From an uncultured Lachnospiraceae bacterium (GTDB taxonomy: Bacteria; Bacillota; Clostridia; Lachnospirales; Lachnospiraceae), in NCBI GenBank assembly GCA_902781895.1, contig CACZLA010000006.1, positions 835-64,834 of the forward strand: 64,000 nt of DNA, read 5' to 3'. Position 1 is the stretch's first letter; each line of letters opens with the position of its first letter. The translations under genes and the position numbers were made by a program. Positions 1,038-48,658 of this stretch are shown here, in pieces. Under the pieces are notes generated by a model, which worked only from the letters and a program-made list of their open reading frames with translations, searched no databases and was not told the origin of the DNA.

Positions 1038-1063
1038 ATTCAATCACCACCCTAGATGATTAT

Positions 1064-1602: not shown

Positions 1603-1668
1603 TATTATCTCCAATCAACAGCATGACGCGTTGTGTTATGTTGTTGATATCAATTTTTAAACATCAAG

Positions 1669-2163: not shown

Positions 2164-2195
2164 GTTTATATCCTTCCTTCTTCATATTCTTCATT

Positions 2196-2230
2196 CATAA
2201 AAACCGCCTATCTTTTTTAAGATAAGCGGT
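2196..2230 (-). terminator. Rho-independent terminator after the VanY-like gene
   Basis: The minus strand reads ACCGCTTATCTT-AAAA-AAGATAGGCGGT followed by TTTTTAT. The stem is 12 bp with one mismatch. Confidence 0.7.
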
Positions 2231-2237
2231 CTAAATT

Positions 2238-3296: not shown

Positions 3297-3363
3297 CTGC
3301 AAACCCCTCCGCACATTATTTAAATAATATGACATAAATGTCATATTACATCGACAGAACTGA

Positions 3364-4335: not shown

Positions 4336-4370
4336 GAATTTCCCCTATCCTATTAGATTCTTCGCCACCT

Positions 4371-6305: not shown

Positions 6306-6330
6306 ACTTTACTCCTTGTTACTTAATACC

Positions 6331-8025: not shown

Positions 8026-8028
8026 TTA

Positions 8029-11000
8029 TCAATCCTCCACAACTCCGGCAAGAGCCCTTAGTGCCATATATACTTCAACATCATTGTTTGATATTTTTCT
8101 CGAAAGCTTAAACAGTTCTATAGCCTTTGGAATATCACCGGATAATTCCGCCATTCTGGCCTGTGCAAGTATTTTATCATAACATGACCCATAGTTGCAA
8201 AAATCACAGGGACTTTTTTTCGTGCACTGCTCAACATACTTAAATGCTTCCTCGCCTCTTCCCTCAAAGAAATATATCATTCCCAGGTCACTTATCCTGA
8301 GAGGACTGGACGGTGCATACATTACATATCCCTCAACTGAGCCATATGCTTTTCTGAGACAGGCAAGAGCTCTTTTGGCCATTTCAGCCGCAAAATCTCT
8401 GATTCCGTAGGCATAACATGCCCCGGCAAAATACCTGTACATCTCAGCATATCGTCTGAGTTCACCTTTGCTGGTCGCATACTCTTCAGGCTTTTCTATC
8501 TTCAGCTGATCTGTTGATTTCTTTCCGATGCCGAACAGCTTACCCTTTGCATCCACAAGGGAATGGGCCGGATAAACACGCGCTTTCCCGTGAGGCATCT
8601 CAAATCTTATAACCTTCTCAAAATAATAAATAGAATTTTTGTAATTCCTCTCATCATTCAGATAAAAGTCTGCCAGGATTCTGAATATGTCTGCACATAT
8701 CTTTCTCGAATTCCCTTTGGAATTCACGTCAAGGCTCTTACTGTTATAGCCGTTATCATTGAGAAATTTATTTATATCAGAAAGCCTTGCAGCAGCCGCA
8801 GTTTCGTCTCCGGAAAGATGTGCCACACCTACTCTTCTAATCATGTTACGAACTATATTGAAATCGTACCATTTATTATTTGTCTGTTTTCTCTGTTCCT
8901 TATAATATGCATCTATTTCGATATATATCCTGTCAGCCGAAGCATAATCCCTGTTTCTGGTATGAAGTCTGGCAAGGATATCCTTTCGACTTGCGGTTAT
9001 TCCGTGTTTTTCGATACACTTCTCAACATACTCTATAGCCTTCCGGAATTCACCCATGGACTCAAAGCATCTGGCCGCATTCATAAATGGTGTCGGAGTC
9101 TCGTCATCCTTCATAACCTCTATAGACTTAAGGAAGCACTCCGCAGCCTCAGGGTACTTACGCATTTTAAGGAAGCAAAGTCCCAGTGCATTGTGGGCAT
9201 ATACATTTTGCGGATCAAACTCGATAGCCTTTCTCGCATCTGCCTCGGCCTTATCAAGCTCATAGCCATCCAGATAGAGAAGTGCCCTCTCTATCCTGTA
9301 ATAAGAATCATCAATCAGATCCAGCTGATGTGTTCCCAGCTTCACAGCCTGCTCATAGGCTTCTCTGTTTTCCTGATCCATATATTCTTCCTGAAGAATA
9401 TTCATCAGCTTATTGCTGGCCACCTTATGATTCGGATTCTTATTAAGGCACTCCAGGTATTGCTTCTTGGCTTCCCCGATACGATCCTTTCTTTTCAGAT
9501 ATTCTGCATACTCATAATTAATCTGGGCATCATCCGGATACTCCTGAAGCATGATATCATACACCCATTCCGACTCTCTGCCGCTGAACTCCTCAATATC
9601 CGTCTGAAGCCACAGGAGTCTTTTATTCTTCGGAGCTATCTTAAGGGCTTTATTCATGAATATCTCTGCATCCTTTATACGTATACGGTTTCCATTCTCA
9701 TCACGGATATTTAACAGCAGTGCCGCATAGTCACCGTAGAAAACCTCCGGTTCGTCCATATCGGACTCGCCGTTTGCTATACGCTCATCAATATTCTGAA
9801 ACATAACGAGAGCCTCGTCCTTTTTGCCTTCGCCATCAAGGATCTTGGCCTCAATAGCACGAAGCCTGTCGTTTTCTATACCCGCATCCTTAGCACGCTT
9901 CAGAACTGACTTAACATCTTCATCCTGATTGTAGATATAAAAAACTCTCGCAGCGAGAACATAGGCATTATCATACTGAGGATAATCACGGATGATATTG
10001 TAGTAATCATCTATTACCAGCTGCGCATCTCTCATCTTATGGGCAGTCTCCTGCCTGTGGATATACGCAGGAACACAGTGGTCGATGCTTGCGATCATCT
10101 CATTCCATATCTCCATGGACTGATCGTATTTTTCCTGTTTGTTAAGCATCTTGCCGTAGCTCTCCTGATAGAACAAAAGCTCATTCTGGTCTCCGTGTCC
10201 GGCTTTTGCTTCAGCTATGGCTCTATTATAATATGCATCAGACTGCTCATAGTCTTCCAACTCCTCAAGGCATGAAGCATACATATAGTAGCAGAATGCA
10301 TTTCTGCTGATACGCTCCTGATCCTTTTTGCTGAGCTTTTCACCCGCCTTGGATCTTGCCACCATATCATCCATCATCTCAACCCATTTTTTGAGATATG
10401 GTAGAGCCTTATTAAACTCTTTCTTTATGTGATAGCATCTGCCGTAGAGATTATTATATGCGTAAAATGTTTCATCCTCGGGCTCGGCTTTATCAAGCAC
10501 CTCAAATACACTGTCCACGTCCTCTATCCTGAAGTAGGACCATGCCAGTTCTACCAGATCTTTATTCGAAGCAGTTCCGTCTTCGTATCTCTTTTTATAT
10601 ACTTCAACGGATCTGCGGTTTATCTCCTTCATAAGCCATACCGCTTCAGCCATCCTGGAGTTTCTGTCCAGAACGCTTATAACAGTATCATTTGCATTCT
10701 CAAATTCCTCATCCTTCATTTCAAGGACGGATTTTGACAGTCTCGCCATAGCACTGTCATCACGTATGTTAAGCAGCTCCTCTACCATCTCTGCAGACTT
10801 AACATATATCCTTGCTTTCTCCTCTTCGGTAGTTGCCTCTGGTCTCTCAATAGTATCCATAAGAAGGAAATAGCACGCGGTTCCGTAGGTATATGTCTCA
10901 TACTCAGTTCCTTCCGGCAGCTTATAATCAAAGAGCAGAAACTCCGCCAGCCTTCTGGCATCGTCATACCGTTCCAACACCTTGAGTGCATTTATCTTTG

Positions 11001-11889
11001 CCGCCAGCTGCATGCAGTGAATATACGGAAAGCTGTCCAGATACTCGATAACCGAACAAAATGTGTCTATCTCTTTTTCTCTTTTTTCCAGAGACTCTTC
11101 TATAACGGACTTCTTTACACGTTCCTTTTCTTCTTCACTCATGCTGTCATCAACAGCATTCTTTCCGTCCTCTATCTCAAACTGTCTGATGTTATTATTG
11201 TATGCCTGGATAAATCCCATATGTCTCAGGTACGAATCTATCTTTGTTTCGAATTCCTCCGGATCAAATGTACCCGGCACACCTTCGATAACGATATCAA
11301 CAGGATAATCAGGACATCTCTTCAGAAACTCCTCTTTATCCTCTATATACTGAAAATCCACAAAGCCTTCGTTTAGTATATGGAACTCCACAAAGGAAAG
11401 AAAATCCGGCGGAAACATTTCCTGAAGGACAGCCTTATCCTGAACTATGCTGAATGTCTTATCTATCAGCTTCCATACCTCGTATGGAAGCAGGAAATGT
11501 CCCATAATAAAAACAAGCAGTGCCTCTCTCACAGCATCGGAGGTATCCAGCTCCGTACATAAGCTATCACCAAGCCACTCCTCCCAGAGAGAAATATCCC
11601 TTCTCTTATAGATATCCTCATAAATAGCCTTCAGCTTGTCTATGTGAATATCCACCTCTGACTTATTCTTTTGCTCCTCTGCAGCGTCTTCCAAGTTCCC
11701 GCTGTTCAGAACGTCATCCTCCCTGGCATAGTTTACAGCCAGCTCAAATGCCTCTCTGAGACGCATGAAACCCTCGGCATCATCCTCGGGATTAACAGTC
11801 ACAACCTTGTTTCTGTAGGCTGCTACTATTTCATTTTCGTCCTTTGTAGGTTCTATTCCCAGAACCTTCCACATATCTACTGTATTCAT
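8029..11889 (-). CDS. Giant J-like-domain / tetratricopeptide-repeat protein (1286 aa)
   Basis: The N-terminus MWKVLGIEPTKDENEIVAAYRNKVVTVNPEDDAEGFMRLREAFELA follows the J-domain helix II-III pattern but has NPE where HPD is expected. The rest contains many 34-aa TPR-like units (A..Y..AI....P....AY...A). Confidence 0.75.
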   Translation of the reverse strand: MNTVDMWKVLGIEPTKDENEIVAAYRNKVVTVNPEDDAEGFMRLREAFELAVNYAREDDVLNSGNLEDAAEEQKNKSEVDIHIDKLKAIYEDIYKRRDISLWEEWLGDSLCTELDTSDAVREALLVFIMGHFLLPYEVWKLIDKTFSIVQDKAVLQEMFPPDFLSFVEFHILNEGFVDFQYIEDKEEFLKRCPDYPVDIVIEGVPGTFDPEEFETKIDSYLRHMGFIQAYNNNIRQFEIEDGKNAVDDSMSEEEKERVKKSVIEESLEKREKEIDTFCSVIEYLDSFPYIHCMQLAAKINALKVLERYDDARRLAEFLLFDYKLPEGTEYETYTYGTACYFLLMDTIERPEATTEEEKARIYVKSAEMVEELLNIRDDSAMARLSKSVLEMKDEEFENANDTVISVLDRNSRMAEAVWLMKEINRRSVEVYKKRYEDGTASNKDLVELAWSYFRIEDVDSVFEVLDKAEPEDETFYAYNNLYGRCYHIKKEFNKALPYLKKWVEMMDDMVARSKAGEKLSKKDQERISRNAFCYYMYASCLEELEDYEQSDAYYNRAIAEAKAGHGDQNELLFYQESYGKMLNKQEKYDQSMEIWNEMIASIDHCVPAYIHRQETAHKMRDAQLVIDDYYNIIRDYPQYDNAYVLAARVFYIYNQDEDVKSVLKRAKDAGIENDRLRAIEAKILDGEGKKDEALVMFQNIDERIANGESDMDEPEVFYGDYAALLLNIRDENGNRIRIKDAEIFMNKALKIAPKNKRLLWLQTDIEEFSGRESEWVYDIMLQEYPDDAQINYEYAEYLKRKDRIGEAKKQYLECLNKNPNHKVASNKLMNILQEEYMDQENREAYEQAVKLGTHQLDLIDDSYYRIERALLYLDGYELDKAEADARKAIEFDPQNVYAHNALGLCFLKMRKYPEAAECFLKSIEVMKDDETPTPFMNAARCFESMGEFRKAIEYVEKCIEKHGITASRKDILARLHTRNRDYASADRIYIEIDAYYKEQRKQTNNKWYDFNIVRNMIRRVGVAHLSGDETAAAARLSDINKFLNDNGYNSKSLDVNSKGNSRKICADIFRILADFYLNDERNYKNSIYYFEKVIRFEMPHGKARVYPAHSLVDAKGKLFGIGKKSTDQLKIEKPEEYATSKGELRRYAEMYRYFAGACYAYGIRDFAAEMAKRALACLRKAYGSVEGYVMYAPSSPLRISDLGMIYFFEGRGEEAFKYVEQCTKKSPCDFCNYGSCYDKILAQARMAELSGDIPKAIELFKLSRKISNNDVEVYMALRALAGVVED

Positions 11890-11896
11890 TACTGTT

Positions 11897-14578
11897 TTAC
11901 TGTTTTCCTTTTTTCTTTTTTACTCTGCGGCTTTCCTGATATTTGATAATATCCTCATATACTCTGATACAGTTATTCCTGTCATCATATTCAAAGAAAT
12001 CGTCCGCTCTCATACGATAGATTTCCTTCATCTCACAGCCGTTTTTCATATAGTCCACCAGCAGCCCTACCAGCTCCTGTTTTCTTCTGACTATCTCACC
12101 AAAGGCCATGGTATCATAGTGAAATGTACCCTCTTCGTAATGGGCCTCCAGCTCCTGCGGATGATAGTACACCAGCGGCTTTCTCATATATGCAAAGTCA
12201 AACTGTATGCCACTGTAATCCGTCACCATGAGACTTGACTCACAGAACATCTTCTCGTAACTCATATCTCCCACAGCCGGAATAATATCTACATAATCAT
12301 TTTTATCAAAATCATCTGCCTGCGGACTGACGATAGGATGCAGCACATAGGCTATCCTGTAGCCGTACTCCTGAGCCGCCGCTATCAGATCCTTGTCATT
12401 GATAAGTCCGTTATATACTTTGAAATACGAGGTCTCTTTAAACAGCGGATTATAATCTCTCTCTACACCCTCATTCTTTGAGACGAATTTAGCCGACTGC
12501 ATTCTCCATGTAGGCGAGATCATTATCTGTTTTTTATCATCATTTATGAGCCCGTCATATCTCGGAATACCCGTAAGTCTGAGTGCATTATAGCCCACAT
12601 AATCATATACGGGATGTGACAGATTCTCTATCTCATACTTTGAAGCACAGTAGTAAAGTCTCGTATTGTCCCTGAGCCTCTGCTGCGCCAGCGCTATCTT
12701 CTGTACTGACAGACCATGCTGCAGGCATACAGTATGAAAGTCCACTATGCCTCTCACATATCTTGAATTCTCAAGATAATAATCATTAAATGCAAACACC
12801 GTAGAGTTTGTAACCAGCATCATATCCGCATTCAGGAATATAAGTCTATGCTTAAAGCTTCCTCTTTTCAGCGGCTTATATCCTTCAGATCTGAGCCTTG
12901 CATAATCCGCAGCGTTTCTGTCGATGAGATAATACAGTCTGTCGGGGCTGATCCTCTTACTTCGTTTCTTTGCTTTCTTATCAGAGGAATCCGACTTATC
13001 TTTCATCCTATCGGTGTCCGACTTATCCTTCATCCTCTGGTATGCATATTTATACATATACTCTGCAGAATCGCCGCCCTTATATATCTTATCGAAGAAC
13101 ATCCATATATTTTTGTTCTTGTAATACGGTCTCGTAAATACCCAGGCCATTCTGAGAAGCAGGAATCTGAATCTGTGCATCTGAAAAGATATGAGCAGCT
13201 GCCACCATATCTTCAGTTCCTTTCCTGCCATGGAGAACCAGTTATATTTTTTAACCACTATCCCCGTTACGATTATCTCATCCTTTTCATCATGAAAATG
13301 CTCCGTAACTGCGAGATAATTTCCGAAATGCCAGTAGGTTCCGGAAGGATAGGCCTCCAGCCTGCTGGTATGCGACTTGAATTCATATTTTATCTCATAT
13401 GCTTCTTTTTCATATTCCATAAAGAAACGCATGATATGTTTCTTTTTATCCCGGAAATGTTTATCCAGGGATACGCTTGCATGAAACGGATATCTTTTAT
13501 ATGCTGCTACTCCGAAATATTTTGTGAGAGAATATCTGTCACAAATCTGAATATCATACCTCTCTCCGTCTATCTCAAAATAGTATCTTACCTTTCGGGC
13601 GTCATAGATATCCGGAAGGGATCCGTCTATTTCCAGCATACCGTCCTTATAATCCATAAACTGGATATTACAGGATAGTCTGTCGGAGTTATATATCCTT
13701 GCATCCCCTGAGTAGATCATCAGCTCAGGATGATCATTTTCCTCATCTGTTTCCCGCTTATAGCTGAGGAAATCATCCTCTGCCTCTTCAGTCTCATACT
13801 CTCCGGAGCTCTGCCATGCATATTTAAATCTCAGCAGCATTCTGGAATACTGGTAATCCCTTTTATATACCGGATGCAAGTAAGTATTCATGATGATATC
13901 ATCATCTATATACTGCAGAGCCTCACCTATCTTCTCCCTGAATTTTACTGTCTGCTCAGGGCCGAGGACATGGCGGTTATTATTGTTCTGATTGGCATCC
14001 AGTCTGCAGGCAATGCTGTACATCCCGTAAAACTGAATAAGAAAGCTGAGAGGATTTTCTTCCCTCTCTTCATTCATATCTTTCAGTAATGGCAACAAAA
14101 ATCCATCCATGTGATCCAGGTACCATGCCTTGTCATAGATACCCTCAAACTCACGATAATTACCGTCTCCCGGCTCTCCCTGGATATACTCAATATCCTG
14201 AGCCACAAGAAACGGTGCATATCTGATGATCTTTAACAGATAGTCTGCCTCATAGTTATATTTCAGACTGCTGTCGAGTCTATAGGGCAGGGTGCTTAAA
14301 CGATTGATATTCAGCATGACACCGGCCATCCTGTTGGGAAACTGAAACAGCTTCTTCGGAGTGGCAAGCACAGCCTGCTCGTTCATATCAAGTATGTCCG
14401 CCAGCTTGTCTGCCATATCACAAACATACTTCTCACCCTTTCTGCCGCCCTTAAATGTATCTCCAACGGACAGAATAAGAAGATAACCGCTATGGTTATT
14501 ATCGAGAAATCTGTTAAACTTCTTTATGAAATTTTCTCTGTCTTTTTTTACTATTATGTGGTATCTCTTGTCTGCCAT
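11897..14578 (-). CDS. CDP-glycerol glycerophosphotransferase family protein (TagF/TagB-like teichoic-acid synthase) with a large uncharacterised N-terminal half
   Basis: The C-terminal ~400 aa matches the Glyphos_transf pattern (IWMFFDKIYKGGDSAEYMYKYA ... LTGIPRYD ... ISPTWR ... LHP ... DYSGIQFDFAYMRKP). An internal coding repeat DRMKDKSD x2 is present. Confidence 0.8.
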   Translation of the reverse strand: MADKRYHIIVKKDRENFIKKFNRFLDNNHSGYLLILSVGDTFKGGRKGEKYVCDMADKLADILDMNEQAVLATPKKLFQFPNRMAGVMLNINRLSTLPYRLDSSLKYNYEADYLLKIIRYAPFLVAQDIEYIQGEPGDGNYREFEGIYDKAWYLDHMDGFLLPLLKDMNEEREENPLSFLIQFYGMYSIACRLDANQNNNNRHVLGPEQTVKFREKIGEALQYIDDDIIMNTYLHPVYKRDYQYSRMLLRFKYAWQSSGEYETEEAEDDFLSYKRETDEENDHPELMIYSGDARIYNSDRLSCNIQFMDYKDGMLEIDGSLPDIYDARKVRYYFEIDGERYDIQICDRYSLTKYFGVAAYKRYPFHASVSLDKHFRDKKKHIMRFFMEYEKEAYEIKYEFKSHTSRLEAYPSGTYWHFGNYLAVTEHFHDEKDEIIVTGIVVKKYNWFSMAGKELKIWWQLLISFQMHRFRFLLLRMAWVFTRPYYKNKNIWMFFDKIYKGGDSAEYMYKYAYQRMKDKSDTDRMKDKSDSSDKKAKKRSKRISPDRLYYLIDRNAADYARLRSEGYKPLKRGSFKHRLIFLNADMMLVTNSTVFAFNDYYLENSRYVRGIVDFHTVCLQHGLSVQKIALAQQRLRDNTRLYYCASKYEIENLSHPVYDYVGYNALRLTGIPRYDGLINDDKKQIMISPTWRMQSAKFVSKNEGVERDYNPLFKETSYFKVYNGLINDKDLIAAAQEYGYRIAYVLHPIVSPQADDFDKNDYVDIIPAVGDMSYEKMFCESSLMVTDYSGIQFDFAYMRKPLVYYHPQELEAHYEEGTFHYDTMAFGEIVRRKQELVGLLVDYMKNGCEMKEIYRMRADDFFEYDDRNNCIRVYEDIIKYQESRRVKKKKGKQ

Positions 14579-20106: not shown

Positions 20107-21660
20107 TTATGAACCCAGGTTTTCTCTTTCGGGTACTGTAACTGTTTTTTCATAACAGGTAAACATTTCTTCAACCTTACCCTGATCAGGCTTAGGAGTT
20201 ATGGCACTTACGATAGGAACTATGATAAGTCCTGCTACCATAGTAACTGCTCCTGCATTGATCGGAGACTGGATGATAGGGAAGAACATATTTACAACTG
20301 TAAATCCTACACCCAGGATGTAGCTTGTCCATACAGCTGCACTTGTGATCTTCTTGCTATAGAGACCGTACATGAACGGTGCAAGGAATGCTCCCGCAAG
20401 TGCTCCCCATGAATAACCCATCAGCTGAGCGATGAATGTAGGAGGATTGAATGCGATAACTACGGAGATTATGATGAATACCATAACCAGTACCTGCATA
20501 AGTCTTACCTGTGTCTTCTCCTTCATATCCTTCTTAAGTACAGGCTTGATAAGGTCAAGTGTAAGTGTTGAACTGGATGTAAGTACCAGTGATGAAAGTG
20601 TAGACATTGATGCTGAGAATACCAGCACTACTACTATTCCAATAAGTATATCCGGAAGTGTTGAAAGCATAGTAGGTACTATGTTATCAAATGCTATTCC
20701 AGGTGTTCCGTCTGCATTTGTGATATGTATTCCCGGTTCGCCGCCGAACAGACGACCGAATCCTCCGAGGAAATAGCATCCGCCTGCTATGATGATAGCG
20801 AAGAATGTAGAAACAACTGTTCCTGTTTTTACCGCCTTCTCATCCTTGATGGCATAGAACTTCTGAACCATCTGAGGAAGTCCCCAGGTACCAAGGGATG
20901 TAAGAACTATTACTCCCAGAAGTGCCAGTGGATCAGGACCAAAGAAGCTTGCGAAAAGTCCCTGTGATTCCTGAAGTGCTGGAGTTGTAACTGCAGGATC
21001 TGTTGCAATATTTGAAAGCTCCTTAACTGCATTAAGGAAACCGCCCTGTCCGTTAAGAACTGCAAATATAACTGCACAGATACCGATAAGCATGATGATA
21101 CCCTGCACAAAGTCATTCAGAGCTGTTGCCATATATCCGCCGATTACTACGTATGCTCCTGTAAGAAGGGCCATAACGATAACGCATATACGATAGTCAA
21201 TATCGAAAGCCATACCGAACAGTCTTGAAAGACCGTTATATACACCTGCTGTATAAGGAACAAGGAAGATGAATGCCACTACTGAACCTACAACACGAAG
21301 AGCCTTGGAATCAAATCTTTTTCCGAAGTACTCCGGCATAGTCTTTGCATCAAGCTTCTGTGTCATAAGTCTTGTACGACGTCCCAGTACAAGCCATGCA
21401 AGAAGACTTCCTATAAATGCATTTCCCAGTCCTATCCATGTTGATGAAAGACCGAACTTCCAACCGAACTGTCCTGCATATCCTATGAATACAACTGATG
21501 AAAAGTAAGATGTACCGAACGCGAATGCCGAGATCCATGGACCTACGGTTCTTCCTCCGAGGACGTAGTCATTTACATTTTTTGCCTTATTTCTTGAATA
21601 GACACCTATTCCGAGCATAACGCTAAAAAATACGACGAGCAGAGCGATTTTGATAACCAT
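20107..21660 (-). CDS. Sodium:solute symporter (SSS) family transporter
   Basis: A polytopic protein with the N-terminal DYVLGGRTVGPWISAFAFGTSYFSSVVFIGYAG pattern typical of PutP/PanF-type SSS carriers. I moved the start to ATG 21660 (MVIKIALL...), which has an AAGGGAG RBS. The 37-aa extension in the track looks non-coding. Confidence 0.85.
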   Translation of the reverse strand: MVIKIALLVVFFSVMLGIGVYSRNKAKNVNDYVLGGRTVGPWISAFAFGTSYFSSVVFIGYAGQFGWKFGLSSTWIGLGNAFIGSLLAWLVLGRRTRLMTQKLDAKTMPEYFGKRFDSKALRVVGSVVAFIFLVPYTAGVYNGLSRLFGMAFDIDYRICVIVMALLTGAYVVIGGYMATALNDFVQGIIMLIGICAVIFAVLNGQGGFLNAVKELSNIATDPAVTTPALQESQGLFASFFGPDPLALLGVIVLTSLGTWGLPQMVQKFYAIKDEKAVKTGTVVSTFFAIIIAGGCYFLGGFGRLFGGEPGIHITNADGTPGIAFDNIVPTMLSTLPDILIGIVVVLVFSASMSTLSSLVLTSSSTLTLDLIKPVLKKDMKEKTQVRLMQVLVMVFIIISVVIAFNPPTFIAQLMGYSWGALAGAFLAPFMYGLYSKKITSAAVWTSYILGVGFTVVNMFFPIIQSPINAGAVTMVAGLIIVPIVSAITPKPDQGKVEEMFTCYEKTVTVPERENLGS

Positions 21661-21762
21661 TATTCTATCTCCCTTTATGTTTTTTAGTTTCACTTTATCG
21701 CAGTAACGATTTAACGTGCTAAAGTGTATTATACAACTATCACTTTTAAAGTCAAGGGAAAA

Positions 21763-23094
21763 ATGGTACAATATTTTACTATGGAAAATATAATTATTGT
21801 TGAATGTACTTCATCCGCAACTGAATATGTCCGGGACGCCAGAGAGCTGGGATATAACCCTGTTATTCTCGAAGTTTTTATAGATAACCCTGAGACCCTG
21901 AAGGTATGTGAAGCCTTCAGACGACAGTGGTATAAACAGATCCAGGCGCCACTTCCCGAGATCATTCGTGATACGGGAGATTTTGAGATACTTCTGTCTT
22001 CGGTTTCTGCTTACGAGCCCGTAGCAGTTATTCCGGGGCATGAGCTGGGAGTAGCTCTTGCCAGCAGACTTTCCGAAGCCCTTGGACTTCCCGGTAATCC
22101 TGTACATATCATTCCCGGGATGATAGAAAAATACGAAATGCATAAGGCACTGAAACGGGCCGGTCTTCGTTATATCAGAAGCAGGAAGATAAAAACCACA
22201 GAAGAAGCACTCAGCTTTTACAGGGAAATCAAAAAGAGTGTTGTTATAAAACCTGACATCGGTGGAGGTTCCATCGGCTGTCATATCTGCCATAGTGAGG
22301 ATGAGATAATAAAGGTTACAGAGACCGAGCTTAGTTCCTTCAATATGTATGGTGACAAAAATGAAACTCTTCTGATTCAGGAATTTATTGATGGAAAAGA
22401 GTATGTCATAGATACCATTTCACAGGATGGAAAGCATTACTTCGAGTTTGCGGCATATTATAAAAAGAATACAACCCATGACGGCCGAAAGGTTTATGAT
22501 ATAACCTACTATATGAAAAGGGATGCTGAGTCAGATACCTTAAGGGAGTTAATCTTCTATGCTTTTAAGGTTCTGGATGCGATTGGAATCGTGGTCGGTC
22601 CGGTACACGGAGAGTTTATGATAGATAATGATGGTATCGTACTTATGGAAATAAACTGCCGCCCCTGCGGAAGTACACCTCGTGAATTTTCAGATCAGAT
22701 CATCGGAACTCATGAAACCCTGCTGGGACTTAAGGCATATCTGGGAATGGACCTTTCTGAGATAAGCACGCTTCCGAAAGAGGAGCAGACACAGAATAGT
22801 CCTGCAAAGACTTATAAATCAGGACTGCAGAAGTTGATCATAGTTCCCGAAAATATGACTGTGGAGTCAGCCCCCATACTTGAGTGGGTAAAGGAGCTGC
22901 CAAGCTACCATTCAACCGAAGGAATAGACGGAGTGTTCCCCAGAGAGCTTCCACGTACCGTGGATCTGGCCACTGACGGAGGTATGGTATATCTCCTTAG
23001 CGCCGATGAAGAAGCTCTATGGGCAGACTATAAAAAAATAAAAGATGCTGAACAAAACAGCTTTGATAAAATATATAAATATCAATCAAAATAA
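21763..23094 (+). CDS. ATP-grasp domain enzyme (L-amino-acid-ligase-like)
   Basis: The layout is Rossmann-like N-domain (IIIVECTSS...GYNPVILE), then KYEMHKALKRAGL, VIKPDIGGGSIG, LIQEFIDGKEY and MEINCRPCG. This is the ATP-grasp order of motifs. The start is ambiguous among 21763, 21781 and the track start 21724. Confidence 0.75.
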   Translation: MVQYFTMENIIIVECTSSATEYVRDARELGYNPVILEVFIDNPETLKVCEAFRRQWYKQIQAPLPEIIRDTGDFEILLSSVSAYEPVAVIPGHELGVALASRLSEALGLPGNPVHIIPGMIEKYEMHKALKRAGLRYIRSRKIKTTEEALSFYREIKKSVVIKPDIGGGSIGCHICHSEDEIIKVTETELSSFNMYGDKNETLLIQEFIDGKEYVIDTISQDGKHYFEFAAYYKKNTTHDGRKVYDITYYMKRDAESDTLRELIFYAFKVLDAIGIVVGPVHGEFMIDNDGIVLMEINCRPCGSTPREFSDQIIGTHETLLGLKAYLGMDLSEISTLPKEEQTQNSPAKTYKSGLQKLIIVPENMTVESAPILEWVKELPSYHSTEGIDGVFPRELPRTVDLATDGGMVYLLSADEEALWADYKKIKDAEQNSFDKIYKYQSK

Positions 23095-23119
23095 ACTTTA
23101 TTAAAAGGAAGTATTTCCC

Positions 23120-25558
23120 ATGTTTATTAAGGAATTAATAAGTAGAACTGAAAACTGCGGATCAAAGATCGCTATAGTTGATAAAGACGGCAAGAGAAAG
23201 ACCACATACGATGAGTTATGGAAGATGGCGTTTTCCGTTGCAGGAAAGCTCCGGGATGACGGCTTCAAAAAAGGCGACATTATAATGATCAGTATGCCAA
23301 GAAGTACCGAATACGTTGCAGCCTATCTCGGCATACTCATTAACGGATGTGTTGCCCTTCCCACTGCTATGGATTATTCCGAGCATAAGATTGCTTCCAT
23401 AGTTAACACCTGTGATGTCAAATCCGTTATGACTCTTACCGACGTTACTTCTATACAAAATATTGATTCCCAAACAGCAGCAGCACTGCGTAGTGACAGA
23501 AGCGACTGTGTATGCTCCGGAACAGATCCTGCATTCATTATCTTTACGTCAGGTTCCATCGATGTTCCCAAGGGCATACTTCATGACCAGAACAGCCTGC
23601 AGTCTTCCGTTGACAGAGCAAGTATATGGCAGAATAATCTGGAGGACGTAAGACTTCTCTCCACTGCCCCCTTCCCATTTATTGTATTTACGGGAGAAAT
23701 ACTTGGTATTTTATGGAGAGGTTCTACTGTTTATATCCTTCCTGAGGAAGACAGATTTGACGCAAAAAAGATCATAGAAGCAATCAACCGGTTCAATATA
23801 AATCTTGCTTTTATTTCCCCTCAGATGCTGAAGGTTATTTTCGAGTATAGTATCTCCATTCCTTCAATGAAGAGAATCATTACCGGCTCCGAAAAAGTAT
23901 CTGATTTATATAACCCTGATATAGAAATATGGAATACCTACGGTATGTCGGAAACAGCAGGTCTCACTATTTTCAAGATAGATAAACCATATGAAAATAC
24001 GCCTATCGGAGATCCTATGGGAGATGCAGAAGTTTTTCTTAATAATGGTGAAATCTGTGCCATAGGTTATTTTTCACATGAATATATAGGTCTTACAGAC
24101 GAAGCAAAAAATCGTTTCCAGCTGCTTGAAGACGGCCGTACTCTTATCAGAACAGGGGACCTGGCTTATAACGATGACGCCGGCCATATTATCTTTATGA
24201 ACAGAAGAGACTGGATGGTGAAAATTAACGGACAAAGAGTGGAGCCCGGCGAGGTTTCCTCCACAATGAAGCATCATCCTCTGATAAAGGACGCTGTTGT
24301 AAAGGGCGAAAAAGCCAACGACAACCGTTATATTCTGATTGGATATTATATAAGTGACGGTATCATCCCCAGTGATGACATCAAAGAATTTCTGAGCAAA
24401 ACACTACCTTCATACATGATTCCGACTTACTACAGAAGAATGGTTGAGTTTCCAAAAAACCGTAACGGTAAGCTGGATATGAAGCGTTTTCCGGGTCTTG
24501 TTACACTTAAGACAAGGGATACAGAACCACCCGTTCCTCCTATCTCAGATGATGAAAAGAAGCTTCAGCATATTTTCCATGAGATACTTGATTATCCGGA
24601 AGACGACATAGGTACCAATGCCGATTTCTTCCATATAGGCGGAGATTCCATCCGTGCACTTATGCTTTCGGCAAAAATAGAACAGGAGTTCTCTGTATCC
24701 ATAACACCCATGGATATATTTACAAACCCTACAATAAAATCCCTGGTTCCTCTTATAATGCAGGACGAGGGGGATAACGATATATATGTTTATCATTATG
24801 ATGAAAATCTTCCGGAAATGATATTTGTTCATACCGGTCATGCCGGCGGCGAAGCTTATTCAAATCTTTCAAAGACTCTGAAGGGGCTCTGCTCATTTGT
24901 CTGCGTGGAACCCTATAATATCTTCCATCCGGAAATGATGATCAAAGGAATAGATAATCTGGCTGCCAAATATATAGAAATTATAAAAAAGAAAAACCCT
25001 CATGGTCCATACATCCTCGGTGGCTGGTCCTACGGCGGACTGATAGCTTACGAAATGGCATGTCAGCTGGCTGAGCAGGGTGAAGAAATACAGCATCTGT
25101 TTATTATGGATTCAAATATAATGAACGATGAAGAAAAACATTTATTCAAACAATTCTTTACAGCAGATGAATTTGATGAATATCTGGAAAAGGATCCTTT
25201 ATTCGAACGATTCAGAAGAATGGGAGTTCTGGACAGGGTAAAGATAAACAGCAAGAATGTTCTTAATGATATGCTGTCCTTTGTTCCGAAAAAATATGAT
25301 GGTCCTGTAACATTTTTCAAGGCTATGGAATACAAAATAGGCGAGGATGCTCTGCAGGCAAGTATTCAGCGTAGAGCTGAAGAAATATCAAGAAAAAAAC
25401 CTGCAAACGGTTTTGAAAAAGTAGCATCAAACTTAAAGATCGTTAATATAGACTCCGATCATGACAGCTTCATGCGTAACTATGCACTCTATAAGATATC
25501 ACTTACTATAGAAATGACGATCAACAAAATAATCAAGGATTCAAAAAATGAAGAGTAA
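23120..25558 (+). CDS. Single-module nonribosomal peptide synthetase-like protein: adenylation - thiolation (PCP) - thioesterase
   Basis: A-domain cores FTSGSIDVPKG (A3), NTYGMSETAG (A5), IRTGDLAY (A7), RRDWMVKINGQRVEPGEV (A8) and NGKLDMKRF (A10). The carrier core is FFHIGGDSIRAL. The TE has GWSYGG (GxSxG) and a late DSDHDSF histidine. No condensation domain is present. Confidence 0.85.
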   Translation: MFIKELISRTENCGSKIAIVDKDGKRKTTYDELWKMAFSVAGKLRDDGFKKGDIIMISMPRSTEYVAAYLGILINGCVALPTAMDYSEHKIASIVNTCDVKSVMTLTDVTSIQNIDSQTAAALRSDRSDCVCSGTDPAFIIFTSGSIDVPKGILHDQNSLQSSVDRASIWQNNLEDVRLLSTAPFPFIVFTGEILGILWRGSTVYILPEEDRFDAKKIIEAINRFNINLAFISPQMLKVIFEYSISIPSMKRIITGSEKVSDLYNPDIEIWNTYGMSETAGLTIFKIDKPYENTPIGDPMGDAEVFLNNGEICAIGYFSHEYIGLTDEAKNRFQLLEDGRTLIRTGDLAYNDDAGHIIFMNRRDWMVKINGQRVEPGEVSSTMKHHPLIKDAVVKGEKANDNRYILIGYYISDGIIPSDDIKEFLSKTLPSYMIPTYYRRMVEFPKNRNGKLDMKRFPGLVTLKTRDTEPPVPPISDDEKKLQHIFHEILDYPEDDIGTNADFFHIGGDSIRALMLSAKIEQEFSVSITPMDIFTNPTIKSLVPLIMQDEGDNDIYVYHYDENLPEMIFVHTGHAGGEAYSNLSKTLKGLCSFVCVEPYNIFHPEMMIKGIDNLAAKYIEIIKKKNPHGPYILGGWSYGGLIAYEMACQLAEQGEEIQHLFIMDSNIMNDEEKHLFKQFFTADEFDEYLEKDPLFERFRRMGVLDRVKINSKNVLNDMLSFVPKKYDGPVTFFKAMEYKIGEDALQASIQRRAEEISRKKPANGFEKVASNLKIVNIDSDHDSFMRNYALYKISLTIEMTINKIIKDSKNEE

Positions 25559-27281
25559 CGACAATCTTCTTCGAAAAACATTTTTGCGGTTTTTACTTCC
25601 GCTGATCATACAGTATCTTGCATTTTCACTCAGCGAGTTTACCGACAGCATACTTGTCAGCCAGATGCTTGGAGACAAGGCTATGGCTGCAGTAAACCTT
25701 GCTTCCAGCTTTGTTCTTATCTTCAGTACTGTCTCGATCACTATAGGAACCGGAGGTTCCGCCGAATATACAAAGTTTCTGGGAGAGAAAAATCCCAAAC
25801 TTGCTAATATCACAAAGAACTACTCCACCTGGCTGTTCGTGGTAAGTGGTATAGTTCTTAGTTTGCTTTGCGTTACTGTCTTCCCTCTGATCGTTCCCCT
25901 TATATCAAAGGATCCCGAGATAGTCGATGCAGCTAAGGGATATACCATTTTCCTTGGAGCACTGGCTCTGCCTTATATACTTGTAAACGGTATGTGTGCT
26001 TTTCTTACTGCCGCCGACCATCCGAAATTCGCAGCCCTGCTAACTGTTATTGCAAATGGTATCAACCTGGGAATGGATATATTCTATGTAAAGGTTGTTG
26101 GTTTTGGTGCCGAAGGCACCGCCCTTGCCACTGCCACCGGTTACATCATCGCTCTGGTCATTATGTTTATATACATGAAGAAGAAGGGACTCTGGGGCAT
26201 AAAGAGACCTCCGAAGAGCGAATTAAAGAGTATAAAAAATCAGACACTTATAGGTTTTGCATCCGGTCTGGGCCAGCTGGGCTTCTCCATCAAGGTAACT
26301 GCCGTAAGTGCCATCTCAAGTCTTGTTGCAGGCTCAGTGGGACTGATCACATTTTCCTTTTCATTCCAGACCGTATCCATCATCAGTCTGTTCGGTGCCG
26401 GCATTATCGGAAGTGCAGTTCCCATAGTCTCAGCTCTGTATGGAGAAAAAGACTTTGTGGGAATCAGAAAGGTTACAAACTATGCAATGATGATACTGCT
26501 TGTCTTCCAGGTGGCTACACTTATATTCTTTGAGCTTCAACCGGAGTTCATGGCAAAGATATATAATATAAATAAGGACAATCTTGATTTTGCCATCCAT
26601 GGTTTCCGTATCTTTTCACTTATGAATATACTTCGATTCCCGACTATATTTATGATGTATATATATTCGGCGATCCGAAAGAACAAACTGGCTATAACCA
26701 TCAGTATCATGGACAGTCTTCTGGTCATCCCGATATCATTTATCATGGGAAAGACCATGGGGGCAGACGGAATATGGTGGGCATTCAGTGTTGCTGCATT
26801 TATCCTGTTCCTTTACATTGTCATATATACCATACGCGAAAACAGGAAAAACAAGCACACAACTACAGGTCCTCTCATGCTTCCTGTAGCAGATAAGGAC
26901 AATACTTTATATTTATCAATCCCAAGTTCCAGTGACTCAGCCTCAGAGCTTTCCATGCAGACCACCGATTTTCTTTCTGAACACGGAATAGACAGAAAAA
27001 CTTCAATGAGATGCGGGCTTCTGGCTGAAGAACTTGGAGTATACCTGTTAAATGAATCCGAAAAAATGGAAATGATCGATTTCATCGTAAGAATCTTTAC
27101 GGGACATATAGATATATGTTTCAGAAGTGACGGAGAACCCATCTCCGGTTTTCTCCTTCTCAAGGAAAAGGAAGACAGTATCAGCGAGAGCATACTCTCC
27201 TCTCTTTCCTCCGAATGCAAATATAACAGATATCTGGGTCTGAACAATTCATATATCAGGGTTGATATCCCGGAGGCCTGA
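25548..27281 (+). CDS. MATE family efflux transporter with an extra ~130-aa C-terminal cytoplasmic domain
   Basis: About 440 aa of 12-TM MATE-like sequence, then a soluble tail (from about nt 26880) containing DRKTSMRCGLLAEELGVYLLNES...IVRIF...FRSDGEPISGF. Its start overlaps the NRPS stop by 11 nt. Confidence 0.8.
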   Translation: MKSNDNLLRKTFLRFLLPLIIQYLAFSLSEFTDSILVSQMLGDKAMAAVNLASSFVLIFSTVSITIGTGGSAEYTKFLGEKNPKLANITKNYSTWLFVVSGIVLSLLCVTVFPLIVPLISKDPEIVDAAKGYTIFLGALALPYILVNGMCAFLTAADHPKFAALLTVIANGINLGMDIFYVKVVGFGAEGTALATATGYIIALVIMFIYMKKKGLWGIKRPPKSELKSIKNQTLIGFASGLGQLGFSIKVTAVSAISSLVAGSVGLITFSFSFQTVSIISLFGAGIIGSAVPIVSALYGEKDFVGIRKVTNYAMMILLVFQVATLIFFELQPEFMAKIYNINKDNLDFAIHGFRIFSLMNILRFPTIFMMYIYSAIRKNKLAITISIMDSLLVIPISFIMGKTMGADGIWWAFSVAAFILFLYIVIYTIRENRKNKHTTTGPLMLPVADKDNTLYLSIPSSSDSASELSMQTTDFLSEHGIDRKTSMRCGLLAEELGVYLLNESEKMEMIDFIVRIFTGHIDICFRSDGEPISGFLLLKEKEDSISESILSSLSSECKYNRYLGLNNSYIRVDIPEA

Positions 27282-27416: not shown

Positions 27417-28253
27417 ATGAGATTAAAGAAATTACTCAAGACAGCAGCAGCTACCACTCTTGCAGCAGTCGTATGCCTGGGTGCAGCAAGCGTTGCAAAG
27501 GCAGCAGGCGGTCAGTGGATGGAAAGTGCCAAGGGCTGGTGGTATAAGAACGCAGATGGTTCTTATCAGAAAGACCAGTGGATGCAGGACGGCGGAAAAT
27601 GGTATTACTTCGATGCCGACGGGTATATGGACTGCAACGGCTATCGTCAGGGCTTCTGGTTAAATGCTGACGGATCATATGATTCAAAATACTCAGGTGG
27701 AAAATGGTATCAGAACAACCAGGGCTGGTGGTGGGCTGATAAGTCCGGCTGGTATCCAAAGAACACATGGGTAAGAATAGACGGAAAGTATTATTACTTC
27801 CATAATTCAGGTTACCTTGCAACAGACTCATGGATTGGTGATTATTACGTAGATAAGACAGGTGCATGGGATGCTTCTGTTGTAAAGGACGGTTATTCAG
27901 GAACATATTCTGAAACTATCGCCGGAAGAGGATTTATGAGCATCATCAAGAACGGAAATCAGCACAGAGTTACAGTAACATGGCCTGACTCAGCAGCTAA
28001 GTATTATTACTGGGAGTTCACAGGAACATTTGATTCCAAGGGCGTTATGAGTTATAAGGGCGCTACAAAGACAGTTTATATTTATGACAAAGACGGAAAC
28101 CTTACTGTAGATGAAAAGGGTCATCAGACACCTTATCAGACATATGCTGACGGTACAGGTACTATCAAGATAAACGGCTCAAAGCTTGAGTGGGTTGAAA
28201 AAGACGGAAGCGGAAAGCAGATTCAGAAGAGTAATTTCAACAAAAATAAGTAA
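27417..28253 (+). CDS. Secreted protein with choline-type cell-wall-binding repeats and a C-terminal beta-rich domain
   Basis: The signal peptide ends AASVAKAAGG. CW_binding_1-like repeats (GWWYKNADGSY, GKWYYFDADGYM, GWWWADKSGWY, GKYYYFHNSGYL) are present. The RBS is GAAGGAGG. Confidence 0.8.
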   Translation: MRLKKLLKTAAATTLAAVVCLGAASVAKAAGGQWMESAKGWWYKNADGSYQKDQWMQDGGKWYYFDADGYMDCNGYRQGFWLNADGSYDSKYSGGKWYQNNQGWWWADKSGWYPKNTWVRIDGKYYYFHNSGYLATDSWIGDYYVDKTGAWDASVVKDGYSGTYSETIAGRGFMSIIKNGNQHRVTVTWPDSAAKYYYWEFTGTFDSKGVMSYKGATKTVYIYDKDGNLTVDEKGHQTPYQTYADGTGTIKINGSKLEWVEKDGSGKQIQKSNFNKNK

Positions 28254-28293: not shown

Positions 28294-28335
28294 ACGGGAC
28301 ATATCGAAATGATATGTCCCGTGTTTTTTGTTTTG
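28294..28335. terminator. Rho-independent terminator (plus strand; possibly bidirectional with pta)
   Basis: ACGGGACATATC-GAAAT-GATATGTCCCGT is a perfect 12-bp stem followed by GTTTTTTGTTTT. Confidence 0.85.
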
Positions 28336-38901: not shown

Positions 38902-39543
38902 TTACTGATTCACCATTTTCTTTGTTACTTCCTTCAGTTCGGCCGCAGCTGCTTTGATATCCTTAGCTGCATATATGGCACTGATCACCGCTATACCGCA
39001 GATGCCGCTGCCGCCCAGCTGGGGCGTATTATCCTTCGTGATACCGCCTATGGCTATAACAGGGATTGACACTGCTTCGCATATGGCCTTCAGTGTTTCA
39101 TAGGACACATCATCAGCATCATCCTTTGATCCTGTGGGAAATACAGCTCCGACTCCGAGATAGTCAGCTCCCCGCTTTTCGGCAAGAACTGCCTGCTCAA
39201 CAGACTGTGCTGAAACTCCGATAATCTTATCAGGTCCCAGCTTCTCACGAACATCTCCGGCCTCCATGTCACTCTGACCAACGTGAACTCCGTCCGCATC
39301 CATTTTAATGGCGATATCCACATTATCATTTATGACAAATGGAACCTTATACTCTCTGCATAGTTCCTTAAGCTCTATAGCTTCCTCGAGAAATGTTTCA
39401 TCATCCAGCTGTTTTTCTCTGAGCTGGAGAAATGTAACGCCGCCCTCCAGACTTTCCTTTACAACATCTGTAAGCTTTCTTCCCTCCAGCCAGTGACGGT
39501 CGGTTACTGCATATAACAGAAGATCATCCTTAGAGCACTTCAT
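38902..39543 (-). CDS. thiE: Thiamine-phosphate synthase
   Basis: LYAVTD, FLQLREK, VHVGQSD, GVSAQS, DYLGVGAVFPT and IPVIAIGGI. The start is moved to ATG 39543 (MKCSKDD...), which overlaps the thiM end. Confidence 0.9.
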   Translation of the reverse strand: MKCSKDDLLLYAVTDRHWLEGRKLTDVVKESLEGGVTFLQLREKQLDDETFLEEAIELKELCREYKVPFVINDNVDIAIKMDADGVHVGQSDMEAGDVREKLGPDKIIGVSAQSVEQAVLAEKRGADYLGVGAVFPTGSKDDADDVSYETLKAICEAVSIPVIAIGGITKDNTPQLGGSGICGIAVISAIYAAKDIKAAAAELKEVTKKMVNQ

Positions 39544-40351
39544 ATTTTGCTCCCTCCTCAAGTGTCTTGCCATCCATGTTATAGATAGCGTCTATGATAC
39601 GGTTACGGTATGTGGAATTTCCATCTGATGGCTGCATATTTTTCCAGCCTATCTCACCGGCAAGTCCCATAGTACATACAGCTGCAGCTGCAGCTTCCAG
39701 CATGTTATCGGGATTTGCCACAATAAATGCAGTGAGCATACCTGACAGCTGACAACCGGTTCCGGTTATCTTTCCCATCTCGGGGCGTCCGTTTCTTATC
39801 ACATAACATTTTTCTCCATCACTGACCAGATCTATGGCTCCGGTTATGGCTACGATGGAGCCGCTCTTTTTTGAGAAATCCTTTACAAATTTTACGGCCG
39901 CCTCAAGGCTGTCCTCAGTTACGGCATCCGCAACATCAGCATCAACTCCCTTTGTGGTTCCGCTTCCCAGAGCAAGAGTCTTTATCTCGGAAATATTTCC
40001 TCTGATAACATCAAACCTTATCTCCTCCATCAGCTTTACCGCCGTTTCAGTCCTAAGCTTTGACGCTCCCGCTCCGACAGGGTCTAGCAGGGTTTTATGT
40101 CCCAGTTCATTCGCCTTTTTTCCGGCCAGGAACATTCCCTTTATACTGCTCTGATTCAGAGTTCCTATGTTGATGTTCAGACCTCCGCAGATGGATGTGA
40201 TATCCTCCACATCCTCCGGTTCGTCTGACATGATAGGACTTCCTCCGCATGCCAGCAGTACATTTGCCACATCATTAACAGTTACATAGTTCGTAATATT
40301 ATGTACCAGTGGCACATTCTTACGAACATTTTCGATACAGGCACCAAGCAT
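39530..40351 (-). CDS. thiM: Hydroxyethylthiazole kinase
   Basis: 273 aa with PLVHNITNYVTVNDVANVLLACGGSPIM, NIGTL, DPVGAGAS and TGTGCQLSGM. The RBS is AAGGAGG. Confidence 0.92.
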   Translation of the reverse strand: MLGACIENVRKNVPLVHNITNYVTVNDVANVLLACGGSPIMSDEPEDVEDITSICGGLNINIGTLNQSSIKGMFLAGKKANELGHKTLLDPVGAGASKLRTETAVKLMEEIRFDVIRGNISEIKTLALGSGTTKGVDADVADAVTEDSLEAAVKFVKDFSKKSGSIVAITGAIDLVSDGEKCYVIRNGRPEMGKITGTGCQLSGMLTAFIVANPDNMLEAAAAAVCTMGLAGEIGWKNMQPSDGNSTYRNRIIDAIYNMDGKTLEEGAKYEVL

Positions 40352-40370: not shown

Positions 40371-40525
40371 TAAAAATTAAAGCAGATACAACCCGGACGT
40401 GGTATATCTGCTTTTAACTCTAAGCTATCGGCTTTTATATCCCTACGTTGGCATTATCCAAATCAGGTAACGGGTCCAGACAATACAGTCTGTTCTCAGC
40501 CTGTTTCCCACAAGCTCCCCTCTTG
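40371..40525 (-). promoter_or_regulatory. TPP (THI-box) riboswitch with intrinsic terminator expression platform, upstream of thiM
   Basis: The minus strand reads GAGGGGAGC...GGCTGAGA...ACCCGTTACCTGATTTGGATAATGCCAACGTAGGGA (about 40441-40523), matching the conserved TPP aptamer cores. The downstream hairpin AAAGCAGATA / TATCTGCTTT (40379-40414) is followed by AATTTTTA. Confidence 0.9.
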
Positions 40526-40603
40526 TTTTTATTATCATATGCTCAGCATGATGATTTATGATACTTACGCCATTGTAGGCTTTGAATGTCATAAAGTCAA
40601 CAT

Positions 40604-47165: not shown

Positions 47166-47168
47166 TAT

Positions 47169-48656: not shown

Positions 48657-48658
48657 AA

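Follow-up and report, generated by a model that had tools for sequence, protein, structure and literature searches.

A three-gene ATP-grasp ligase, A-T-TE and MATE exporter cassette in an uncultured Lachnospiraceae bacterium

Results

Organization and conservation of the cassette

We analyzed a 64,000-nucleotide (nt) stretch of DNA from an uncultured Lachnospiraceae bacterium (contig CACZLA010000006.1, positions 835 to 64,834; hereafter the window), focusing on three adjacent plus-strand genes that encode an ATP-grasp ligase, a nonribosomal peptide synthetase (NRPS) protein of 812 amino acids (aa) made up of adenylation (A), thiolation (T) and thioesterase (TE) domains, and a MATE exporter. 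Sequence comparisons confirm these genes as a real, conserved and rare orphan unit, and we consider it quite probable that this unit couples the biosynthesis of a small amide or ester to its export.

The open reading frame (ORF) listing of the window places the three genes at 21724/21763-23094, 23120-25558 and 25548-27281. The three genes, their domains, a 25-nt spacer and an 11-nt overlap had been described in a first-pass annotation of this DNA, and all are confirmed, with Pfam scores far beyond chance. The spacer (23095-23119) lies between the ligase and A-T-TE genes and contains a AAAGGAAG ribosome-binding site, the A-T-TE stop codon TAA (25556-25558) falls within the MATE gene to produce the overlap, and an AAGGA site is found 8 nt upstream of the MATE start codon, ATG 25548.

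The whole trio recurs in a second lineage as a single collinear block corresponding to window positions 21781-27272, at 70% nucleotide identity and with no nucleotide match outside the block. Protein identities between the two lineages are 59% for the ligase and 72% for both the A-T-TE and the MATE protein, and the second lineage keeps the short gap between ligase and A-T-TE genes as well as the overlap between A-T-TE and MATE genes. The flanks there are unrelated to those of the window, with YhhN, an NAD-synthase-like gene and DUF436 upstream and two SpoIIE phosphatase genes downstream. Synteny in relatives, which had been proposed as a check, is therefore found despite different flanks, and these comparisons support the trio as one compact, co-inherited, operon-like cassette of 5.5 kb.

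Because a single nucleotide block, 21781-27272, is shared by the two lineages, it sets the boundaries of the cassette and leaves out the sodium:solute symporter gene that is transcribed divergently from it (20107-21660, minus strand; Pfam SSF 4.1e-63), the presence of which had been correctly noted. We considered the symporter as a cassette member and ruled it out, as second-lineage homology starts at 21781 and the upstream genes there differ. The divergent intergenic region (21661-21780), presumed to be the promoter region, carries consensus promoter-like sites only and is not conserved in the second lineage. The block also refines the start of the ligase gene: the ORF from 21763 (443 aa) is real, but the start proposed there gives way to ATG 21781 (MENIIIVEC; 21781-23094, 437 aa) as the most likely one, because second-lineage homology begins exactly at that codon.

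A search with the A-T-TE protein against 5.8 billion protein clusters turned up no more than three closer relatives, at 99%, 72% and 42% identity, the first of which is a copy from the same species with the same flanks as the window; beyond these three comes a Bacteroidales group at 34-36% identity. Scanning 185,579 GTDB species representatives, one genome per species, returned nothing closer than 37%, with full-length homologues (33-36%) only in Bacteroidales metagenome-assembled genomes.

Domain content of the A-T-TE protein

The 812-aa protein begins right at the N-terminus of its A domain (23120-24499; Pfam AMP-binding, 1.3e-44), which is followed by a T, or peptidyl carrier protein (PCP), domain (24560-24748; PP-binding, 1.5e-16) and a TE domain (24818-25558; Thioesterase, 5.1e-25), all on the plus strand. 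Neither Condensation nor NAD_binding_4 (reductase) has a Pfam match at E ≤ 0.01 in this protein, which bears out the earlier statement that condensation (C) and reductase (R) domains are absent. The A-domain cores are readily found in the translation (A3 FTSGSIDVPKG, A5 NTYGMSE, A7 RTGD, A8 NRRDWMVKINGQRVEPGEV and A10 NGKLD), and the A10 lysine, Lys451, which occupies the position of GrsA Lys517, is invariant in an 8-member family alignment. The GGDSI carrier motif is present, with G507-G508-D509-S510 invariant in the same alignment (Ser510 codon at 24647-24649), as is the GWSYGG motif holding the TE nucleophile Ser637 (25028-25030), with Asp664 (25109-25111) and His781 (25460-25462) likewise invariant; the PCP serine and the TE catalytic residues thus prove intact on proper alignment. 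The nucleophile itself is Ser in Clostridial members of the alignment and Cys in Bacteroidales members. Proteins P0295, P0308-P0312 and P0318-P0320 (~1016-1047 aa) start with an A domain of the type described below, which lacks Asp235, and have an extra ~230 aa between T and TE; a Cys nucleophile (GWCYGG) is seen in P0295, P0308 and P0311, those whose TE motif was examined.

The best Protein Data Bank (PDB) match of the window TE is the NocB TE (6ojc, 6.5e-14), with which its Ser and Asp align, and the domain falls in the standard NRPS terminal TE clade, where it shares 58% identity with the TE of a C-A-T-TE module. In the absence of C and R domains, the ATP-grasp enzyme and the TE are the only possible sources of an amide bond. 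The first-pass annotation had assigned amide bond formation to the ATP-grasp enzyme rather than to a C domain, and its exclusion of a C domain stands, while the TE has to be added as a possible source.

An A domain without Asp235

We read the specificity positions of the A domain, whose extraction had been proposed earlier, by alignment to GrsA-PheA, and compared them with known amino-acid codes. The resulting code is I-V-G-F-I-G/T-T-G-(-/L)-K, i.e., IVGFIGTG-K, which lacks Asp235: Ile188 sits at the GrsA Asp235 position, and Lys517 is conserved. Glycines at positions 239, 301 and 330, with Phe, Ile and Leu also lining the pocket, suggest that the pocket is roomy and hydrophobic.

Several lines of evidence argue that the missing Asp235 is not an alignment artefact. 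The same alignments yield ordinary D-codes for the elongation A domains of related synthetases, with Asp absent from the initiation A domains homologous to that of the window, and among the listed codes for the 120 nearest A domains only three start with Asp. The loss also correlates with architecture. In a sample of 60 proteins with a TE of the window's clade, taken from a full HMMER scan of 1.84 billion representatives, Asp235 is absent in 22 of the 25 proteins that start with an A domain (C-less A-T-TE) and present in 21 of 22 C-A-T-TE modules (Fisher p = 3.6e-9). The first A domain of an NRPS at a related locus (L017, discussed below) has the code VAWTIAAATK, a D235V version of the GrsA Phe code and the pattern that would be expected for a phenylpyruvate- or phenyllactate-type substrate.

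We infer from this code that the window A domain would load a carboxylic acid that has no free alpha-amino group, or one that is N- or O-blocked. With Gly, Phe, Ile and Leu as pocket-lining residues, candidate substrates would be 2-oxo, 2-hydroxy, aryl or medium-chain acids. An earlier proposal that the protein handles a single activated acyl or aminoacyl unit survives for an acyl or blocked unit and fails for a plain aminoacyl one, given the replacement of Asp235 by Ile188.

Two other readings of the protein start from the same pocket. In one, the A-T-TE protein would be an alpha-keto-acid-dimerizing NRPS-like enzyme of the quinone or furanone synthetase type, the product of which is then amidated by the ATP-grasp enzyme. 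The architecture is the same, Asp235 is absent in both, and several neighbouring A domains carry VAQF/VAEF-type codes, but the window code agrees with the fungal keto-acid code V-A-E-F-S-G-G-A-C-K (a string that a literature search did not find) at only 3-4 of 10 positions, and the window TE groups with ordinary NRPS terminal TEs. We regard this reading as quite improbable.

The other reading reverses the order of the enzymes: the ligase would join two free substrates (an amino acid with a second amino acid or a 2-hydroxy acid), much as VanA joins D-Ala-D-Lac, and the A domain would activate the dimer for the TE to cyclize into a diketopiperazine, morpholinedione or lactam. The ligase does come first in the gene order, a pre-acylated alpha-substituent would account for both the absent Asp235 and the room left by the three glycines, and a TE of the standard terminal clade, with its 58% identity to that of a C-A-T-TE module, is in keeping with such a role. 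However, the same Asp235-less A clade initiates A-T-C-A-T-R synthetases that have no ligase, and we know of no A domain that activates a dipeptide, leaving ligase-first cyclization an unlikely, if serious, contender.

An ATP-grasp protein of the L-amino-acid-ligase kind

The first protein of the cassette matches ATP-grasp_4 in Pfam (7.7e-16) along with several further ATP-grasp models. By phmmer its residues 65-427, almost the whole protein, align with PDB entry 30vh ('L-amino acid ligase') at 3e-35, and BL00235 is matched in sequence at 1.4e-9. An AlphaFold (AF2) model built from 16 homologues reached a mean predicted local distance difference test score (pLDDT) of 88.3, and in Foldseek BL00235, RizA and BacD/YwfE fill ranks 1-6 for this model with a TM-score of ~0.7 (3vot, 4wd3, 3vmm, 3wo1, 3wnz), at alignment identities to these L-amino acid ligases of 14-18%. 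An E-I-N-C-R motif, of the E-x-N-x-R type, is present, with E290 and R294 invariant across the 16 homologues. The comparison with BacD and RizA that had been recommended thus places the protein among L-amino-acid ligases both by sequence (3e-35) and by fold. Curated family cut-offs are missed throughout (NCBIfam PRK07206, 233 vs. 302; DdaF, the second-best match at 7.9e-32, 110 vs. 840; BacD, 24.6 vs. 850). On sequence and modelled fold, the window protein is of the L-amino-acid-ligase kind, yet it is the equivalog of no named ligase.

The wider ligase family (35-41% identity) comprises two forms, a long one of ~560 aa and a short one of 424-442 aa. Long-form homologues either lie in tandem paralogous arrays beside MFS and MarR genes or close a his operon, and short-form homologues (35-38% identity) lie directly 3' of TE-terminated multimodular NRPS genes. 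These preceding NRPS genes encode TE domains that are homologues of the window TE, so that a second architecture again joins a TE of this type to a ligase of this type. At one such locus (L017), the NRPS gene (30-6929) is TE-terminated, with its last T domain followed by a Condensation-family domain (C or epimerization, E) and then directly by the TE (T-C/E-TE); downstream of it lie a short-form ligase homologue and a Methyltransf_24 gene.

The long form has surroundings of its own. Four tandem paralogues (557-568 aa, with a C-terminal extension of ~125 aa) occupy 5328-12327 at loci L011 and L012, flanked by three MFS transporter genes and one MarR gene, and some proteins resembling this form are labelled Methanobrevibacter in the source databases. 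On a Saccharofermentans-like contig (L013, 7001-8701), the final gene of a complete histidine-biosynthesis operon encodes a 566-aa long-form homologue with 40% identity, a position that hints at a His-containing dipeptide.

Related NRPS loci and the place of the ligase

The 42%-identical relative of the window A-T-TE protein is the last of three modules in an assembly line (L004, 822-10406) that reads A-T-C, A-T-C, a 471-aa protein and A-T-TE, so that two A-T-C proteins take the place that the ligase holds beside the window protein. All three A domains of this line lack Asp235, which suggests, at the level of its sequence, an oligomer of non-amino (e.g., 2-hydroxy) acids as the product, and the line is followed by an ABC exporter consisting of a GAF-ABC ATPase and a 1250-aa FtsX permease. 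The Bacteroidales A-T-TE relatives lie downstream of a large C-A-T...R synthetase, at loci that also hold a beta-lactamase-fold protein, a 420-aa protein and a MATE-HATPase_c_2 exporter. Considered as candidates for diverged ligases or C domains, the 471-aa protein of L004 and the 420-aa protein (examined at L007) have no similarity to the ligase and no Pfam match; a PDB search returned no matches for the latter and only matches at E > 0.2 for the former. In Ruminococcus and Lachnospiraceae, the Asp235-less A clade forms the initiation domain of A-T-C-A-T-R synthetases, downstream of which lie a gene for a 577-aa MATE-HATPase_c_2 protein and one for a SpoIIE-HATPase_c_2 protein. Judged by gene content, then, the window cassette is one from which the C-domain-bearing partners are all absent and in which an L-amino-acid ligase is present instead.

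This substitution raises the prospect of ligation on the carrier, in which the ATP-grasp enzyme would replace the C domain by acylating a hydroxyl or non-alpha amine of the T-tethered substrate, and the TE would hydrolyze or cyclize the dimer. BtrJ provides a parallel, as it acts on a BtrI-bound substrate in butirosin biosynthesis. The position of the ligase fits: in L004 the terminal A-T-TE has as its condensation partner the C domain of the A-T-C protein before it, and in the trio the ligase holds that place, in genes whose tight coupling is conserved. To our knowledge, however, no L-amino-acid ligase works on a carrier-bound acceptor, and we consider ligation on the carrier improbable.

A MATE exporter with an RsbW-like tail

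The third gene encodes a 577-aa protein whose MATE membrane domain (25548-26852, plus strand) matches MatE in two stretches (Pfam, 1.3e-28) and is recognized by NCBIfam MATE models, with a TIGR00797 score of 103 that lies under the subfamily cut-off of 147. The last ~140 residues (26880-27281) make up a separate domain that the first-pass annotation had missed. The window copy of this domain has no Pfam match, whereas 4 of 6 aligned homologues match PF13581 (HATPase_c_2; best 3.7e-13), and for an AF2 model of moderate confidence (pLDDT 67.5) all of the top 20 Foldseek matches are anti-sigma kinases (SpoIIAB, RsbW, UsfX; best E 1.1e-5, TM-score ~0.55). This SpoIIAB/RsbW-like domain is probably degenerate in the window. 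Its N-box Asn appears to have been lost (EELGVYLLNES, compared with EEMVNNIVEHG or EEFVNNIIRHG in homologues), for which reason the tail is probably a non-catalytic binding module, not a kinase. The exporter reported earlier is accordingly a MATE protein, as stated, although not a plain one: it is a MATE-RsbW-like fusion, of which our literature search found no description.

At least 40 of 80 related NRPS loci have such an extended MATE protein (one aligning past the membrane domain) within 10 kb of the A-domain match. The extended MATE is therefore a hallmark of this group of NRPS clusters from gut and rumen, and this lends support to a functional link between the exporter and the A-T-TE protein. 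Two of the related loci (L063, 14889-18429; L002, 5678-9174) have SpoIIE (PP2C) genes downstream of a MATE gene with an RsbW-like tail, including one with a further HATPase_c_2 domain fused to it, and PF13581 is also found on some NRPS proteins (P0021, P0027). These arrangements suggest that many Clostridial NRPS clusters have a partner-switching module associated with them.

The regular partnership of this MATE type with related NRPS genes also bears on whether the three genes could be neighbours without a shared pathway, or could modify the cell envelope instead of making a diffusible metabolite. The window does hold a dlt-like carrier-protein system (44648-50075), a cell-wall-binding-repeat protein is encoded directly 3' of the cassette, and the product assignment is by inference only. 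Against this, the three genes are conserved together as a single block between different flanks, with their translational coupling kept, and a reading without a common diffusible product is in our view very unlikely.

Genomic surroundings

The window has a GC content of 42%, and its genes include ones for cell-wall-binding repeats, Pta and GGDEF/EAL proteins, which together suggest a Clostridia genome of the gut type. Directly after the cassette (27417-28253, plus strand) lies a gene for a secreted protein with cell-wall/choline-binding repeats, which has its own promoter-like sites and ribosome-binding site and ends at a strong bidirectional terminator-like hairpin of 13 pairs (28294-28322); this gene is present in same-species contigs and absent from the second lineage. 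The dlt-like operon (44648-50075, plus strand) has five genes, encoding an MBOAT protein (541 aa), a 301-aa protein without Pfam match, a DltA-like AMP-binding enzyme (495 aa) that keeps Asp235 (FDFDVS), a pyridoxal-phosphate-dependent protein of the Orn/DAP/Arg-decarboxylase fold (399 aa) and a 74-aa carrier-like ORF that reads ..NILDSFAIISL... A decarboxylase within a D-alanylation-type operon is unusual. The only Rfam match in the window is a thiamine pyrophosphate riboswitch (RF00059, 59.6 bits; 40423-40531, minus strand), located just downstream of a 1303-aa GGDEF-EAL gene and upstream of a minus-strand gene at 39530-40351. The same scan found no riboswitch or T-box upstream of the cassette that could serve as a clue to its substrate.

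Discussion

The overall interpretation offered by the first-pass annotation, a compact pathway for a small exported metabolite, is supported in part: the cassette as a unit, the kind of ligase and the lack of C and R domains hold up, while its account of the loaded unit, of the symporter and of novelty needs revision. We tentatively favour a small N-acyl (or O-acyl) amino acid or dipeptide as the molecule that the cassette makes and exports. In the sequence of steps that we envisage, the A domain would adenylate a carboxylic acid other than a free alpha-amino acid, and this acid would pass onto the carrier and then to the TE. The ATP-grasp enzyme would form an aminoacyl phosphate and couple it to an amine to yield a dipeptide or an amino-acid conjugate, and the TE would hand the tethered acyl group to the amino (or hydroxyl) group of this ligase-made partner. 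Alternatively, the ATP-grasp enzyme could extend the carboxylate of an N-acyl amino acid already released by the TE, and with either order the end product would be an amino acid or dipeptide carrying an N-acyl (or O-acyl) group. Export would be the task of the MATE protein, whose cytosolic, kinase-like tail probably ties this step to a partner-switching circuit. The exact succession of steps is a doubtful part of this proposal.

The reasoning behind the proposal is that a lone A-T-TE protein loaded with an acid that carries no nucleophile would have three outcomes that are not futile, namely TE-mediated transfer to an external nucleophile, cyclization of a pre-assembled substrate, or C-C dimerization of alpha-keto acids. 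An L-amino-acid ligase might supply a dipeptide or amino-acid nucleophile, or might add a further amide bond on a released carboxylate.

Several points weigh against this proposal. Aminolysis of the TE-bound acyl group by a free amine is an assumption, and hydrolysis alone would be a futile cycle. Assignments of product, substrate and activity are made from sequence only for all family members, and the A-domain code alone does not identify the substrate. The code was moreover read against a GrsA-PheA reference sequence for which the sole check is that DAWTIAAICK appears at the canonical positions. A motif scan, which provides weak negative evidence only, found no phosphopantetheinyl transferase in the window. 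Finally, the Bacteroidales A-T-TE relatives occur without any ATP-grasp gene, which indicates that this TE clade does not require a ligase.

A broader variant would describe the cassette as a C-domain-free hybrid logic, in which the ligase replaces the NRPS condensation domain by acylating a carrier-tethered non-amino (e.g., 2-hydroxy) acid or by supplying the nucleophile for TE release, the whole having evolved from a Clostridial A-T-C/A-T-TE line and the RsbW-like domain of the MATE protein coupling export to SpoIIE-type partner switching; with all its parts taken together, we hold this to have a slim chance of being right.

If our proposal is correct, three genes in 5.5 kb would show how an ATP-grasp ligase and a carrier module can be combined without a condensation domain, and the cassette would provide a first handle on the largely uncharacterized bacterial C-less A-T-TE class, whose members, in our data, almost always carry Asp235-less A domains. 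The MATE-RsbW-like fusion in turn hints that partner-switching signalling and the export of metabolites are connected by regulation. The likely outcome is an ordinary one, in the form of a simple N-acyl amino acid or dipeptide of a class already known from gut bacteria, and the more general value would then lie in the correlation between C-less architecture and missing Asp235 and in the exporter fusion.

The closest known systems include the mycosporine-like amino acid clusters, in which an ATP-grasp gene, MysC, adjoins a C-less A-T-TE gene, MysE (Ava_3856 / Ava_3855), and MysE, with homologues reported from cyanobacteria only, adds one unit, Ser or Gly, to a small scaffold (PMC10666671). That scaffold is 4-deoxygadusol, made by MysA and MysB, and activation of Ser or Gly requires Asp235, whereas the window cassette lacks MysA, MysB and Asp235. 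MysA (a DHQS/EEVS homologue) and MysB (an O-methyltransferase) are not among the window flanks, which encode the symporter, an ABC transporter, the cell-wall-binding-repeat protein and Pta, nor among those of the second lineage (YhhN, NAD synthase, SpoIIE). In dapdiamide biosynthesis, DdaD (A-T, 578 aa, no TE) works with the ATP-grasp enzyme DdaF (PMC12451424). As in the window, a single NRPS-like module there tethers a small acid and an L-amino-acid-ligase-type enzyme makes the peptide bond; unlike dapdiamide clusters, the window cassette has no DdaC/G/H-type partners, and its module has a TE.

Both precedents show that the earlier description of the trio as not a textbook cluster type was overstated, although the trio does lack the other genes of both pathways, and our literature search found no characterized example of its gene combination. 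The adjacency of ATP-grasp and A-T-TE genes in mycosporine clusters (PMC10666671) and the rank of DdaF as second-best NCBIfam match of the ligase (7.9e-32) might even suggest that the cassette is a fragment of a MysC/MysE- or DdaF/DdaD-like pathway. Homologues of MysA/MysB, DdaC, DdaG and DdaH flank the cassette in neither lineage, MysE takes Ser or Gly (PMC10666671) while the window A domain lacks Asp235, the DdaF score of 110 compares with an equivalog cut-off of 840, and DdaD has no TE (PMC12451424), making such a fragment a far-fetched explanation; membership in either pathway is ruled out by gene content, Asp235 and the curated cut-offs.

BacD/YwfE, RizA and BL00235 share the fold, domain order and E-x-N-x-R motif of the window ligase, but act alone or with non-NRPS partners, unlike it. 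Non-reducing NRPS-like A-T-TE enzymes, such as the terphenylquinone and furanone synthetases, condense two aromatic alpha-keto acids, with the TE building the product (PMC9047271); they are stand-alone A-T-TE proteins as in the window, and those described in that work are fungal. The window cassette shares the logic of the Mys, Dda and fungal A-T-TE systems, yet appears to belong to none of them, its specificity code being a poor match to that taken for the fungal enzymes. Finally, the Clostridial and rumen A-T-C-A-T-R + MATE-HATPase_c_2 + SpoIIE clusters (e.g., Ruminococcus sp. JL13D9, L063) have the same Asp235-less A clade and the same MATE-RsbW-like exporter as the window. SpoIIE genes follow the cassette in the second lineage, as they do in these clusters, whereas none follows the window cassette, which contains a TE and an ATP-grasp ligase in place of the C domains and terminal reductase of the A-T-C-A-T-R clusters.

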